DNA of 35,143 bases from an uncultured Enterobacterales bacterium (lineage in GTDB: Bacteria > Myxococcota_A > UBA796 > JAFGLY01). Below, piece after piece: positions 8,644 through 21,219 of this stretch. The position numbers were made by a program, and so were the translations under genes. Every line of letters starts with the position of its first letter. Within the stretch, counting starts at the first letter, position 1. The notes beneath the pieces are model-generated. The model had not been told where the DNA came from, made no database searches, and saw only the letters and a program-made list of their open reading frames with translations. The stretch covers positions 1-35,143 of the forward strand of contig CAZHIK010000003.1 in the NCBI GenBank assembly GCA_964532635.1, read 5' to 3'.

Positions 8644-9861
8644 ATGAAACGCGGCACTGCCATCCACGACACCCTGAGGCGCGCCCGCCTGTTTGCCGGC
8701 GTGCCCCTGGCGGACTTCCAGCTGGTGCTGTCCACCATGCGAAAGGTGGAGCTCGCCCAGGGAGAGCGACTGTTCCAACAAGGGGATCGGGGCGAGGCCA
8801 TGCACGTGCTGGCTTCGGGCAAGCTGGCGATCCTGGTCAAAGACGCCCACGGTCGAGAGAACAAGATCAGCCAGATCGGTCCCGGCGCCTGCGTCGGCGA
8901 GATGACCTTCCTGGACCCCCAGCCCCGCTCCGCCTCTGTGGCCGCCATGGAGCCGAGCCTGGCCCTGGAGCTGGACCGCCACCTGCTCGAGTACCTCCGC
9001 GCCGACGCTCCCCGGGCCGCGGTGGCCATCGTCGGCGGCATCATCGAGCAGCTCAACGAGCGCCTGCGCGACACCAACGACCTGATCGACGTGCAGCTGC
9101 GGCGCCTCAAGGCGACCAAGGGCGCGCCTCCGCCCACCGTGGAGGTCCCCCGCCATCCCCGCGGTCCGGCCCCACGCCCCTACGGAGGGCACCTGGACCT
9201 CGAGGAGCTGCGAATGCTCCGAGGGCTCACCTCGGCCGACCAGCGCCTGCTGGCTCAGCTGGCGCCCCCTCGGATCTACGAGGATCGCTCCCTGCTGTGC
9301 CACGAAGACGACCCGGGAGCCTCCTGCTTCGTGGTGCTGTCGGGCCAGGTGGACATCCTCAAGGCCATGCGCGGCAAACGTCGCCGGCTGGCCACCCTGA
9401 AGGCCGGCTCCATGGTGGGGCAGCTGGCCCTCGTGGATCCCGCCCCCCGCTCGGCCACGGTGCGGGCCCGCGGGCGCGTGGTAGCCATGGAGCTGTCCCA
9501 CATCGACTTCCAGAAGCAGCTGGCCAAGGGCAGCCCCCTGGCGCTGCGCTTCCAGGAGCAGATCGCCGTCTCCGGCGTGCACCAGCTGCGCATGGCCAAC
9601 GGGCGCTGCGTGCAGCTGTTCGACAAGGCCAAGCACGCCCACGGCCGTGCCCCCGAAGCCCCCAAGAAGGCCTCGGCCCCCAGCAAGCGCCCCCGCACCC
9701 TCCCCCAGGAGAGCGTGCGCATCGAGGATCCCCTCAACTTCGTCAAGACCGCCCTGCGCGAGTGGGGCATGTCCATGGACGAGCTGGACAAGATGGAGGT
9801 GGTCCAGGCCGACGGCATGATGACGGCGGCCGAGATCGCTGCGCGCAAGCAGCGGTTCTAA
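8644..9861 (+). CDS. Protein with two tandem cyclic-nucleotide-binding (CAP/Crp effector) domains and no recognisable output domain
   Basis: AGGAG precedes ATG 8644, with an alternative ATG at 8626. Domain 1 reads LFAGVPLADFQ...GDRGEAMHVLASGKLAI...IGPGACVGEMTFLD..PRSASVAA. Domain 2 reads LRGLTSADQ...GASCFVVLSGQVDI...GSMVGQLALVDPAPRSATVRA. The C-terminal ~110 aa are a Pro/Ala/Lys linker plus an uncharacterised tail. Confidence 0.85.
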   Translation: MKRGTAIHDTLRRARLFAGVPLADFQLVLSTMRKVELAQGERLFQQGDRGEAMHVLASGKLAILVKDAHGRENKISQIGPGACVGEMTFLDPQPRSASVAAMEPSLALELDRHLLEYLRADAPRAAVAIVGGIIEQLNERLRDTNDLIDVQLRRLKATKGAPPPTVEVPRHPRGPAPRPYGGHLDLEELRMLRGLTSADQRLLAQLAPPRIYEDRSLLCHEDDPGASCFVVLSGQVDILKAMRGKRRRLATLKAGSMVGQLALVDPAPRSATVRARGRVVAMELSHIDFQKQLAKGSPLALRFQEQIAVSGVHQLRMANGRCVQLFDKAKHAHGRAPEAPKKASAPSKRPRTLPQESVRIEDPLNFVKTALREWGMSMDELDKMEVVQADGMMTAAEIAARKQRF

Positions 9862-18835: not shown

Positions 18836-21219
18836 GGGTGCTCCAGGTGAGCGGTGGGTTCAGGCGAAGGCGCCGGCAGCTGGACGTAGAAGCGGGTGCC
18901 CCTGCCAGGCGCGGACTCCAGGCGCACGGTGCCGTGGTTCTTGTAGAGAATCTTGCGGACGATGGTCAGCCCGATGCCCTCGCCCTGGGTGCCGCGGGGA
19001 TCGAGGCGGTGAAAGATGTCGAAGATGCGGTCCTGGTGGCGAGGATCGATCCCCTGCCCGTTGTCCTCGATGCAGATCTCCACGACACCGTCCAGGGAAC
19101 GCCCCGAGATGCGGATGCGTCCTGGACGCTCGGGATCCAGGTACTTGATGGCGTTGTCCACCAGGTTGGCGAAGGCCTGGGACAGCTGCTCCCGGTCGCC
19201 GTGGCAGGCAGGCATGGCCTCGACCTGCACCTCGATGTCCCGCTCCTGCACCACGAACTCGAAGGAGCGGAGCAGATCGCGCATCATGGCCTGGGTCTCG
19301 ATGGGCTCGGGCCGGGGATCCCGCCGCCCGGCCCGGGACAGCTGCAGCAAGCCGGCCAGCAGCCCCTCCATCTTGTTGATGCTCGAGGCGATGAACTCGA
19401 GGCTCTCGTCGACGTCCTCCTGGACGATGGCCCGGGCCAGCTCCATGCGCTGGGGCGGCAGCTCCGCCTCGCCCAGGATGGACAGCAGCTCCTTCACGCC
19501 CCGGCCCAGCTCCCGGCTGAAGCCCTGCACGTTCACCAGCGGCGAGCGCAGATCGTGGGAGGTGACGTACACCACCTGCTCGAGCTCCTCGTTCTTGCGA
19601 TGCAGCTCGACGTTGAGCAGCTCTCGCTCGCGCTCCGCCGCCCGCCGCTCGGTGATGTCCAGGCCCATGCCCACCAGGTGGGGGGCCCCGTCCAGCTGGG
19701 CCAGGCGCCCGGTGAAGAGGTACGGGATGCCCGGCCCCTCCGTGGGCACCAGGGCAGCCTCGGCCGTGGCCTCGCCTTCGGTGAAGACCCGCCCGATGCG
19801 CTGGGCGATGTGCTGCTGATCCGCGCCCTCGAAGAGATCGAGGGCGTTGGTGGAGGCCATGCGCGCCCCGTCGCGGCCCACGACCTCCTCGAAGCGCGCG
19901 TTCCAGCGCACGAAGTCGCCCTTTGTGTCCAGCACGTAGAACACGCCCGGCAGGCTGGCGAGGATGGCCTCCACGAAGTCCTTCTCCTGCTGCAGCTCGG
20001 CGGTGCGCTCGGCGACCAGCTGCTCGAGCTCCTCGCGGTGGCGTCGGAGCTCCTCCTGTGTGCGCCGTTCCTCCGTGATGTCCGAACTCACGGTAGCCAG
20101 ACAGAGCGGCTGACCGACCTTGTCCCGCACCAGGAAGATGTGGTCGTTTGTGAAGACTCGGCGGCCCGCGAGCCCGGTCATCTCGAGCTCACCCTCCCAG
20201 CGGCCCTCAGCCATCACCGCAGGGATCACCTCCTGCTCGAAGCGCTGAGCGACCGGATCGGACATCACCTCGGAGACCTGACGTCCCACCAGGGTGTCCC
20301 CTTCCGGTGTCTGGGCCATCCGCGAGAAGGCTTGATTCGCGTAGATCAGCTGTCCATCGAGCGACGCCATGGCGAAGCCCTCGGTGGCCTCCTCTGCGAA
20401 GCGCTCGAAGCGACGCAGCCTCTCCTGAGCGACCTTCTCATCCGTGATGTCCAGGATGACGTCAGCCAGGTAGGCGGGGTTCCCTTCTTCGTCTCGCACC
20501 AGGAAGTAGTGCTCGTGGGTGGCGATGACCCGACCGTCCAGCCGAGTGAGCGCCAGCTCCCCCTGCCAGCTCCCCCTGCTCATCACCGTTGGGATCACCT
20601 CCTCGGTGATCCGTCGCAGGTGTGTCCCGGCGTAGAAGCGGGGGAAGGCCACACCCTCGAGGTCCCTGGCGCGCGACGCGCCGAGCATCCTGACCAGGGC
20701 CGGGTTGGCGTAGTGGATCCGACCGTCGAGGGTGGCCATGCCGAAGCCCTCGGTGGCCGCGTCGGCGAAACGGCGGAACAGGGCCATGCCTTCCTCCGAG
20801 GCCTTGCGATCGCTGATTTCTTCCGCTGAGCCGAGGATGGTCCGCACCCGGCCGTCGTCGGTCAGCTCGAACGCAGCGTCCCGGCTGCGCAGCCAGCGCC
20901 AGTCCCCCGTGGCGCTCTTCATGCGGTACTCGATCTCGTGGACCTCACCCTTGGACGCCACACGAAGCGTCGCGTGGTGTGCCATCACAGCGGGCAGATC
21001 CTCCGGATGAATGGTCTCGACGAACAGCCGTTCCCCGAACTCGCGGACCTGCTCGGGGGTGTAGCCCAACAGCTCCGTGACCTCGCGGTTGGCGAACACG
21101 TTCCGCTGCTCCACCAGGTCGTAGACATAGATGATGACGGGGACCGTCCCGAGCACGAGATCGAGAAACTCGCGGCGCTCCGCGGCGGGCAATCCGGGGA
21201 CAAAGGACGTGTCGGACAT
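18832..21219 (-). CDS. Soluble multi-PAS (about 4) sensor histidine kinase
   Basis: A strong RBS (GAGGAGG on the minus strand, 21223-21229) precedes ATG 21219. PAS modules recur (..IHPEDL.., two near-duplicate modules FAD/EEATEGFGMA/FAMASLDG..., ..LPGVFYVLD..). The H-box is YVTSHDLRSPL. HATPase boxes are NLVDNAIKY, DNGQGI and GEGIGL. Confidence 0.85.
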   Translation of the reverse strand: MSDTSFVPGLPAAERREFLDLVLGTVPVIIYVYDLVEQRNVFANREVTELLGYTPEQVREFGERLFVETIHPEDLPAVMAHHATLRVASKGEVHEIEYRMKSATGDWRWLRSRDAAFELTDDGRVRTILGSAEEISDRKASEEGMALFRRFADAATEGFGMATLDGRIHYANPALVRMLGASRARDLEGVAFPRFYAGTHLRRITEEVIPTVMSRGSWQGELALTRLDGRVIATHEHYFLVRDEEGNPAYLADVILDITDEKVAQERLRRFERFAEEATEGFAMASLDGQLIYANQAFSRMAQTPEGDTLVGRQVSEVMSDPVAQRFEQEVIPAVMAEGRWEGELEMTGLAGRRVFTNDHIFLVRDKVGQPLCLATVSSDITEERRTQEELRRHREELEQLVAERTAELQQEKDFVEAILASLPGVFYVLDTKGDFVRWNARFEEVVGRDGARMASTNALDLFEGADQQHIAQRIGRVFTEGEATAEAALVPTEGPGIPYLFTGRLAQLDGAPHLVGMGLDITERRAAERERELLNVELHRKNEELEQVVYVTSHDLRSPLVNVQGFSRELGRGVKELLSILGEAELPPQRMELARAIVQEDVDESLEFIASSINKMEGLLAGLLQLSRAGRRDPRPEPIETQAMMRDLLRSFEFVVQERDIEVQVEAMPACHGDREQLSQAFANLVDNAIKYLDPERPGRIRISGRSLDGVVEICIEDNGQGIDPRHQDRIFDIFHRLDPRGTQGEGIGLTIVRKILYKNHGTVRLESAPGRGTRFYVQLPAPSPEPTAHLEHP

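Follow-up and report, generated by a model that had tools for sequence, protein, structure and literature searches.

Histidine kinases (HKs) that are themselves controlled through a receiver domain (Rec-kinases) have acquired a mechanistic model only recently, with work on LvrB published in 2026 (PMC13269768), and few of their natural pathways have been mapped. In the Lvr system of pathogenic Leptospira, LvrA phosphorylates LvrB, the prototype of such kinases, at Asp56, raising its autokinase activity, and LvrB then phosphorylates LvrC; activation involves formation of a coiled coil in the signaling helix and release of the CA (catalytic, ATP-binding) domain (PMC5863495, PMC13269768). Here, we describe an array of ten two-component genes that includes an architectural counterpart of LvrB. 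The array lies on the minus strand of a 35,143-bp stretch of DNA (the whole of contig CAZHIK010000003.1 of assembly GCA_964532635.1, from an uncultured bacterium of the GTDB lineage Myxococcota_A), referred to below as the window. We call its genes G0, G0b, and G1 to G8, following minus-strand order with G0 first. With moderate confidence, we propose that they form a conserved ten-gene super-operon in which PAS and GAF inputs act through a Rec-kinase cascade on the hydrolysis of cyclic di-GMP (c-di-GMP), with a parallel transcriptional arm.

An earlier reading of this DNA, made from the sequence alone (the sequence-only reading), had held that the array was not a described pathway. That was too strong, as its building blocks all have counterparts that have been studied: Lvr, the CheA3/CheS3 pair of the Che3 system, Lhf, and RedCDEF. 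Precedents for a kinase that acts on a Rec-kinase, and for a receiver that serves as a phosphate sink, have been published (PMC4436063, PMC6879726, PMC2755868). In Rhodospirillum centenum, the hybrid kinase CheS3 is under the control of CheA3, which phosphorylates the CheS3 receiver to inhibitory effect (PMC4436063). Che3 resembles the proposed arrangement in that one kinase controls a second through a receiver and the second kinase has a response regulator of its own (CheY3), but its upstream kinase is a CheA encoded in a chemosensory cluster, whereas a Pfam scan of the window found no CheA, CheW, or methyl-accepting chemotaxis protein domains. Because phosphorylation of the receiver is inhibitory in Che3, the sign of receiver control in the present array could go either way. 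In the Lhf system of Rhodopseudomonas palustris, the phytochrome kinases BphP2 and BphP3 load a dispensable single receiver, LhfD, with the REC-HK protein LhfE downstream (PMC6879726). Multi-gene two-component loci that combine several transmitters and receivers are a familiar feature of myxobacteria (PMC2755868, PMC3018481), and some of these, such as RedCDEF of Myxococcus xanthus, use phosphate-sink or phosphatase logic without a histidine phosphotransfer (Hpt) domain (PMC2755868). RedCDEF differs from the present locus in having four genes rather than ten, and there is no orthology between the two.

All of the domains and module types in the array are thus already known; what is unusual is its size and layering. 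New are the run of ten contiguous same-strand genes, the occurrence of three Rec-kinases together in one putative operon, and a putative Rec-kinase cascade that ends in an HD-GYP protein. Our literature search found no characterized Rec-kinase feeding an HD-GYP protein, which is not proof of absence. A survey from 2010 tabulated loci of up to four genes, with tetrads accounting for 1.3-1.7% of two-component genes (PMC3018481).

Extent and conservation of the array

The eight abutting minus-strand genes that had been described at positions 9858 to 21219 (G1 to G8) were reproduced by open reading frame (ORF) coordinates and translations, and their starts agree with those in public gene calls. 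Each of the reported junctions was seen in the sequence as well: ATGA at 18832-18835 (G1/G2), a 5-nt gap at 18357-18361 (G2/G3), an 8-nt overlap at 15732-15739 (G3/G4), GTGA at 14594-14597 (G4/G5), ATGA at 13446-13449 (G5/G6), GTGA or a 2-nt gap at 11837-11842 (G6/G7), and TGATG at 11397-11401 (G7/G8). The boundary at 21219 was drawn too short, however, and the array has ten genes rather than eight. Across a 133-nt spacer (21220-21352) upstream of G1 lie G0b and G0, which are joined to each other by an ATGA overlap. The ten-gene locus totals six kinases and eight receivers over ~15 kb, all on the minus strand, and such a run of consecutive same-strand two-component genes cannot be chance.

G0 (21982-24702, minus; 906 aa) encodes a soluble sensor kinase in which four PAS domains and a GAF domain precede HisKA_3 (Pfam, 1.4e-13) and HATPase_c, and G0b (21353-21985, minus; 210 aa) encodes a NarL/FixJ-type REC-GerE regulator (Response_reg, 1.9e-27; GerE, 3.6e-17). 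By these domains and their overlapping genes, they are a standard HisKA_3/NarL pair. Two statements about output therefore change with the boundary, since the pair accompanies the array in each of the four lineages described below. The view that an HD-GYP protein is the only output was a boundary artifact. The absence of a DNA-binding domain holds for the eight proteins G1 to G8, which gave no such Pfam match, but not for the array, given the GerE domain of G0b encoded 133 nt upstream.

In the proposed mechanism, G0 would phosphorylate G0b, and G0b would provide the transcriptional output, possibly acting on an inverted repeat before G1. This repeat, TGTAGGC-N4-GCCTACA, is located directly after the G0b stop codon and is accompanied by a third half-site (GCCTACACCAGGATC) inside the spacer (together, 21287-21351). 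The corresponding spacers of the relatives also carry it (L001, ~7085-7217; L089, ~3645-3737; L097, 5926-6132), and the half-sites do not differ among the four lineages, unlike the 4-nt center and the remaining spacer, which vary. This pattern fits a protein-binding site; the repeat may be an operator, possibly one for G0b, or else a transcript hairpin. A possible GG-N10-GC motif in the sequence of the spacer had raised the idea of a sigma-54 promoter, which we dropped as unsupported.

The tight coupling of the genes had been taken to imply stoichiometric co-expression. Their junctions overlap or are 2-8 nt long, and Shine-Dalgarno-like sequences precede most starts, which argues for co-expression but not for a fixed stoichiometry. 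A scan of positions 8000-27500 returned a single promoter match, a weakly supported sigma-70-like candidate upstream of G0 (TGGATA-17-TATCAT, 24732-24760, minus), where chance predicts a mean of 0.8, and no above-chance internal promoter. Eight terminator-like matches were found in the same interval, none of them at a gene junction (chance mean, 3.9; standard deviation, 2.2). As these matches are not clearly above chance and none lies at a junction, the scan is evidence neither for nor against the operon.

Exact-protein look-ups added three more lineages, so that the locus can be compared across four. Gene order and coupling are conserved in these metagenomic relatives. In the closest lineage (L001, L002, L007, and L008), the proteins are 71-91% identical to those of the window and the gene order is the same. 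A second lineage (L089 to L091) has the same order at 64-83% protein identity, together with an extra small gene and a convergent gene for a cyclic nucleoside monophosphate (cNMP)-binding protein. The third (L097; 60-79% identity) has only G0 (376 aa) and G0b, a 207-nt spacer, G3 (751 aa), G4, and G5, followed by the convergent cNMP gene; its locus adjoins aminotransferase and PP-loop genes, as does that of the window. G0, G0b, G3, G4, and G5 are thus kept in all four lineages, and G0b is 79-89% identical in the other three. A scan with G3 as the query returned 80 loci, but none of the species-representative genomes contained a close copy (identity reached 49% at most, over a segment), and the best matches of individual modules were mostly to Myxococcota metagenome-assembled genomes (MAGs). 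For DapD, encoded next to the array, all named matches were to MAGs labeled Myxococcota, Myxococcales, or "Deltaproteobacteria" (71-77% identity), and with moderate confidence the source is an uncultured lineage of the Myxococcota.

These relatives leave little room for the idea that the array is an artifact of spurious high-GC ORFs, pseudogenes, or misassembly. The G+C content of the window is indeed high (~69%), and the strand opposite the array carries numerous spurious, overlapping ORFs. However, every gene of the array has strong Pfam domains and intact catalytic motifs, and several samples and sources independently yielded assemblies with this gene content and order, so that this explanation is effectively refuted and its probability close to nil.

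The relatives also show how the locus varies. The five-gene form of L097 might be taken for an ancestral minimal state, but this is ruled out by the last 26 residues of G2, which are still encoded before its G3 (6049-6126; tblastn, 61.5% identity, E 5e-7). Because that C-terminal remnant persists, G1 and G2 were evidently deleted in L097, which lacks G6 to G8 too. Between G1 and G2, the relatives have an extra gene of 119-129 aa (L001, 9581-9940; L089, 5729-6118) encoding a degenerate pseudo-receiver without the acidic pair, T, and K, and this gene is cleanly absent between 18832 and 18835 in the window. The sensor kinases differ widely in length, with 906, 907, 388, or 376 aa for G0, 795, 788, or 664 aa (L089) for G1, 874, 867, 756 (L089), or 751 aa (L097) for G3, and 536, 926 (L001 group), or 812 aa (L089) for G6, whose longer orthologs have extra PAS segments. 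From one lineage to another, it is the sensor regions that differ strongly, whereas the parts with transmitters and receivers are conserved, so the sensor parts appear to undergo rapid gain and loss of PAS domains. As judged from these comparisons, the array is conserved as a unit over appreciable divergence, yet it is modular and appears to evolve by insertion and deletion of PAS domains and by gene gain and loss.

The domain content described for G1 to G8, comprising five soluble histidine kinases, seven receivers, and one REC-HD-GYP protein, was borne out by Pfam, which assigns nine PAS/GAF modules to these eight proteins. All of the receivers align with the acidic pair, the phosphoacceptor Asp, the T/S, and the K, none being degenerate, and the translations of all five kinases contain the H-box His and the N, G1, and G2 boxes. 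No transmembrane-like stretch was found in the eight proteins; of the hydropathy windows (Kyte-Doolittle), the top two (1.88 and 1.70) fall in a PAS strand and in the conserved HD-GYP core. Pfam gave zero Hpt matches in G1 to G8, and there was no Hpt domain in the ten proteins or in the other scanned ORFs of the window, the array having no spare coding space. The array accordingly lacks the Hpt that stands between two receivers in a classical His-Asp-His-Asp phosphorelay. This domain content supports a wholly cytoplasmic, many-input system without an Hpt.

The G3-G4-G5 module

The central element of the proposed cascade is G4 (14594-15739, minus; 381 aa), in which Pfam finds a receiver (Asp57) followed by a DHp domain (for dimerization and histidine phosphotransfer) with His165 and a CA domain. 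It matches LvrB (8vc9, 382 aa) over nearly its whole length (phmmer E 1.3e-28, residues 35-377 against 38-379), although identity is only ~25%. An AlphaFold2 model of G4 built from 37 homologs (pLDDT, 87) shows a single unbroken helix, residues 112-186, running from alpha5 of the receiver through the H-box, with no other sensor domain, and then the second DHp helix and the CA domain. With this model as the query, ranks 1-6 in Foldseek are all chains of 8vc9 (E 4e-27); the TM-score against LvrB is only 0.41, owing to differing domain orientations. The KP motif and the H-box His are 57 residues apart, and the receiver set is present (D13, D14, D57, T85, and K108). Fourteen columns are invariant across the 37 homologs, among them D13, D14, D57, K108, P109, H165, N275, N279, G337, G339, and G341. 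By sequence and modeled fold, G4 thus appears to be a full-length homolog of LvrB and a Rec-controlled histidine kinase of the LvrB type.

The resemblance extends to gene context. G4 and LvrB share the REC-DHp-CA architecture, and the G4 gene, like that of LvrB, directly follows and overlaps the gene for a larger soluble PAS kinase that itself has a receiver. The G3-G4 pair is cytoplasmic and without a DNA-binding domain, as the Lvr pair is, and activation of the Rec-kinase by its upstream kinase is expected. There are also differences. LvrA is an HK-REC-HK protein, whereas G3 has an N-terminal receiver; the downstream partner is a receiver-anti-sigma factor in Leptospira and a REC-HD-GYP protein here; and the proposed operon here has two further Rec-kinases (G3 and G8) and two extra sensor modules. 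The cascade from one kinase to a Rec-kinase that the sequence-only reading had raised as a possibility is therefore plausible, as G4 matches LvrB in full and LvrA switches LvrB on through its receiver.

G3 (15732-18356, minus; 874 aa) is a REC-PAS-GAF-PAS-HK protein with the H-box AHEINTPL (His612) by Pfam. We propose that it joins the signals of its own PAS and GAF domains with the phosphorylation state of its N-terminal receiver and that it would phosphorylate the receiver of G4. Because G4 is of the LvrB type, phosphorylation of this receiver should free the G4 catalytic domain, as in LvrB. As to what G3 may sense, four Cys residues of its GAF domain (~17120-17340, residues ~340-410; NLC, ACxCG, and TC) are invariant in three orthologs, and the window copy has further Cys residues. 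These cysteines hint at a redox, metal, or Fe-S sensing input.

G5 (13446-14597, minus; 383 aa, with a GTG start) combines a receiver with an HD_5/HD domain (Pfam HD_5, 1.8e-30), the architecture of RpfG-type regulators. RpfG differs in being paired with the membrane hybrid kinase RpfC via an Hpt domain, of which there is none here. Residues 142-353 of G5 match PmGH of Persephonella marina (4mcw) at ~50% identity over 210 residues (E 1.2e-54) and retain the PmGH motifs FRDEETGEH, PMHDVGK, QTHT, HHERWDGAGYP, and DVFDAL, which include the residues we take to be the metal ligands of PmGH. PmGH differs from G5 in having a GAF-like N-terminal domain where G5 has a receiver. The cyclic GMP-AMP (cGAMP)-specific V-cGAP3 (5z7c, the second-best match; E 2e-34) and PA4781 are more distant. 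G5 is thus a predicted c-di-GMP phosphodiesterase, its preference over 3'3'-cGAMP being indicated by relative similarity alone. The link that had been drawn between this HD-GYP domain and c-di-GMP hydrolysis fits the presence in G5 of every catalytic and metal-binding motif of the active PmGH. In the last step of the proposed cascade, G4 would phosphorylate the receiver of G5 and activate its PmGH-like HD-GYP domain, and c-di-GMP would be hydrolyzed.

Elsewhere, parts of this module are found in other company. The G4 receiver is 52-59% identical to receivers downstream of HEINxP-type kinases, and it also matches the 379-aa REC-HK of L049, a Myxococcales locus in which a PAS5-HK (1583 aa), this REC-HK, a REC protein (404 aa), and a REC-HD-GYP protein (401 aa) follow each other in a layout like that of G3-G4-G5. 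As a general rule of the family, the pairing of G4 with G5 is ruled out by the varied contexts of REC-HD-GYP proteins and by pairs of G4-like kinases with REC-HDOD proteins, and these comparisons indicate a lineage-specific pairing. It was also observed that HEINxP kinases very often head a three-gene motif of kinase, ~400-aa REC-HDOD protein, and ~385-aa REC protein with a divergent HD-GYP-like C terminus, seen in L013, L016, L017, L040, L074, L085, and many other loci from several phyla.

Accessory modules and the wiring of the array

The remaining genes on either side of G3-G4-G5 follow a common pattern. G1 (18832-21219, minus; 795 aa) is a 4xPAS-HisKA-HATPase_c kinase (H-box SHDLRSPL, His555), and G2 (18362-18835, minus; 157 aa) is a single-domain receiver of the type found after SHDL-type kinases. 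G6 (11839-13449, minus; 536 aa) is likewise a PAS-PAS-HisKA-HATPase_c kinase (H-box SHDLRAPL, His314), G7 (11399-11836, or from a GTG at 11842, minus; 145 aa) a single-domain receiver, and G8 (9858-11399, minus; 513 aa) a REC-HK-REC hybrid (H-box AHEINNPL, His155), all by Pfam. In an all-against-all comparison, G1 and G6 (30% identity over 446 aa), G2 and G7 (35%), and G3 and G8 (34% in the kinase and 37.5% in the receiver) were best paralogs of each other; G3 and G4 share 30%. The kinases fall into two H-box classes, SHDLR(S/A)PL in G1 and G6 and HE(I/L)N(T/N)(P/L) in G3, G8, and G4.

To place these modules, we annotated 88 related loci with hidden Markov models built from the window's own domains and then sought the nearest receivers. 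G7 is 52-60% identical to stand-alone receivers in L025, L033, L052, and L080 (MAGs labeled Myxococcales, Polyangiaceae, or "delta proteobacterium"), and the N-terminal receiver of G8 best matches that of REC-PAS-HK-REC hybrids in the same four loci. There, the counterparts of G7 and of the N-terminal receiver of G8 (42-60%) share a three-gene arrangement of PAS-kinase (SHDL), single receiver (149 aa in L025 and 147 aa in L033), and REC-(PAS)-HK-REC. G2 matches single receivers of this class at 37-40%. Because G6-G7-G8 is much closer to its counterparts in distant MAGs than to G1-G2-G3, the duplication behind the accessory modules is ancient. The G6-G7-G8 type is also found by itself in other MAGs labeled Myxococcota or "delta proteobacterium." These similarities indicate that G1-G2 and G6-G7-G8 are ancient paralogous modules of sensor kinase, single receiver, and Rec-kinase and that the array comprises four separable modules, G0-G0b, G1-G2, G3-G4-G5, and G6-G7-G8.

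A similar cluster logic is seen in Lhf, where sensor kinase, single receiver, soluble REC-HK, and a REC-HTH protein (LhfA) occur side by side, as do G1-G2-G3, G6-G7-G8, and G0b here; the likeness is one of gene-cluster logic and architecture. Unlike the Lhf sensors, G1 and G6 have PAS domains only, without a bilin-binding GAF or PHY domain; G0b has its own HisKA_3 kinase; and the output includes an HD-GYP protein. The SHDLxxPL H-box is typical of phytochrome-type kinases. No PHY or GAF domain was found in G1 or G6 by Pfam, only PAS-family domains, so that G1-G2 and G6-G7 resemble bacteriophytochrome and Cph1-Rcp1 systems only in their H-box type and in having a single receiver downstream.

In the wiring we propose, G1 would probably feed the receiver of G3, and G6 would probably feed the N-terminal receiver of G8, whose kinase would load its own C-terminal receiver. 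G2 and G7 would serve as phosphate sinks or competitors. The residue four positions after the H-box His is S or A in G1 and G6, not T/N, and T/N at this position is associated with phosphatase activity in HisKA kinases. Because G1 and G6 lack it, a sink receiver would be useful to them. Single-domain receivers can also act as allosteric effectors, as DivK and CheY do. G2 and G7 might then be the main, CheY-like outputs, binding a motor, a kinase, or another protein, while the HD-GYP protein would form a side branch or have 3'3'-cGAMP as its substrate. In line with this, no other protein of the array is as conserved as G2 (91% identity in the closest lineage), and G2 alone falls in a 90% cluster with further members. 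V-cGAP3, a cGAMP phosphodiesterase, ranks second among the solved relatives of G5. On balance, we think such an arrangement unlikely. L097 deleted G2 and lacks G7 but retains G5, there are no che, flagellar, or pilus genes within the window, and the similarity of G5 to PmGH (E 1e-54) far exceeds that to V-cGAP3. Moreover, LhfD, the single receiver of the Lhf analog, can be dispensed with and has been interpreted as a sink for phosphate (PMC6879726).

A further question is how far the modules communicate. The array had been read as one branched or multi-input phosphorelay; the many-input, cytoplasmic part of that description stands, but the array is better seen as separable modules, given that L097 lost G1-G2 and is without G6-G8. 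Taken to its end, modularity would mean four insulated, co-transcribed pathways (G0/G0b, G1/G2, G3/G4/G5, and G6/G7/G8) with no exchange of phosphate between modules, the N-terminal receivers of G3 and G8 being served by their own module or by acetyl phosphate. This is possible, although we regard it as somewhat doubtful. Modules are also found separately in other loci, L097 has just G0, G0b, G3, G4, and G5, and the array is evolutionarily fluid, with PAS numbers and the pseudo-receiver gene varying between lineages. The specificity positions of the DHp domains also differ between kinases. Yet gene order and the inter-module junctions G2/G3 and G5/G6 are kept in three lineages at 64-91% protein identity, and similar mixtures recur in distant Myxococcota MAG loci, with L018, L025, L033, and L082 being comparable super-clusters of the same module types. 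In addition, the intact N-terminal receivers of G3 and G8 need a donor.

It is also important to point out what weighs against the proposed cascade. The residues at His+7, +11, and +12 of the DHp domain differ among G3, G4, and G8, which fits insulation as well as a cascade. L097 lacks G1 and G2, but the catalytic residues of its G3 receiver are intact; thus, G1 cannot be the sole phosphodonor of G3. G8 ends in a receiver with no Hpt domain to pass phosphate to. G4-like Rec-kinases also occur with REC-HDOD proteins, for example in a flagellar cluster, and three REC-HD-GYP homologs (53-54% identity) are found in varied contexts, namely after a hybrid kinase, after a single receiver, and as an orphan. 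HD-GYP enzymes can be cGAMP specific, as is the second-best match of G5. Finally, we infer every phosphotransfer arrow, the sign of receiver control, and the substrate of G5.

A stronger form of the cascade would place the three Rec-kinases in series or in an AND gate, with phosphate signaling running from G6 through G8, G3, and G4 to G5, G1 as a second donor of G3, and G2 and G7 as sinks; G0b would act on the inverted repeat and thereby set the level of the entire operon. This form leans on the resemblance of alpha1 of the G3 receiver to alpha1 of the C-terminal receiver of G8. In the comparison of receiver alpha1 and DHp specificity residues, which rests on eight receivers and is therefore anecdotal and a lead only, the two receivers of each accessory module also look alike. 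We give the serial arrangement little credence. If true, it would have three to four tiers without an Hpt domain and would be the deepest operon-encoded His-Asp cascade known, bringing up to nine PAS/GAF inputs to one switch-like decision on c-di-GMP hydrolysis.

Neighboring genes and significance

On the far side of the array, a plus-strand gene (8626-9861; 411 aa) with tandem cNMP-binding domains (Pfam) converges on G8, the stop codons overlapping so that the two gene ends share 9858-9861. Its product resembles the cNMP-binding domains of PKA-R and CRP and has no recognized output domain. The gene keeps its convergent placement in L089 and L097, directly after G5 in the latter, and this suggests a functional link with the array. 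Farther away, genes for a Rce1-like CAAX protease and a radical SAM/SPASM protein lie near the array both in the window (91-2504, plus) and in L089 (17424-19519). In the window, an ORF of unknown function, a 1032-aa beta-helix protein, and a GHL10 hydrolase are encoded between them and the array. On the G0 side, two plus-strand genes (24732-26000 and 26010-26675) encode lipobox-bearing proteins with long acidic (DT)n/(DA)n repeats and no Pfam match, the first of which also has Cys-rich DCxDxxDNDxDGLxDCxDPDC repeats with a period of 84/165 nt. A further plus-strand ORF (27479-27955) encodes a 158-aa lipoprotein-like product with four CxxCH motifs and a C-terminal poly-Asp tail, a candidate small tetraheme cytochrome c.

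The locus offers three Rec-kinases (G3, G4, and G8), all-soluble proteins, and an enzymatic end point in the predicted HD-GYP enzyme, and its sister lineages provide natural deletion variants, which would make it a tractable test bed for Rec-kinase cascades. If its modules are insulated, it documents the accretion of unrelated two-component modules into super-operons of the Myxococcota. If they do communicate as proposed, it could reveal how kinase cascades of several tiers are assembled in bacteria and how many cytoplasmic signals are joined into the turnover of c-di-GMP.

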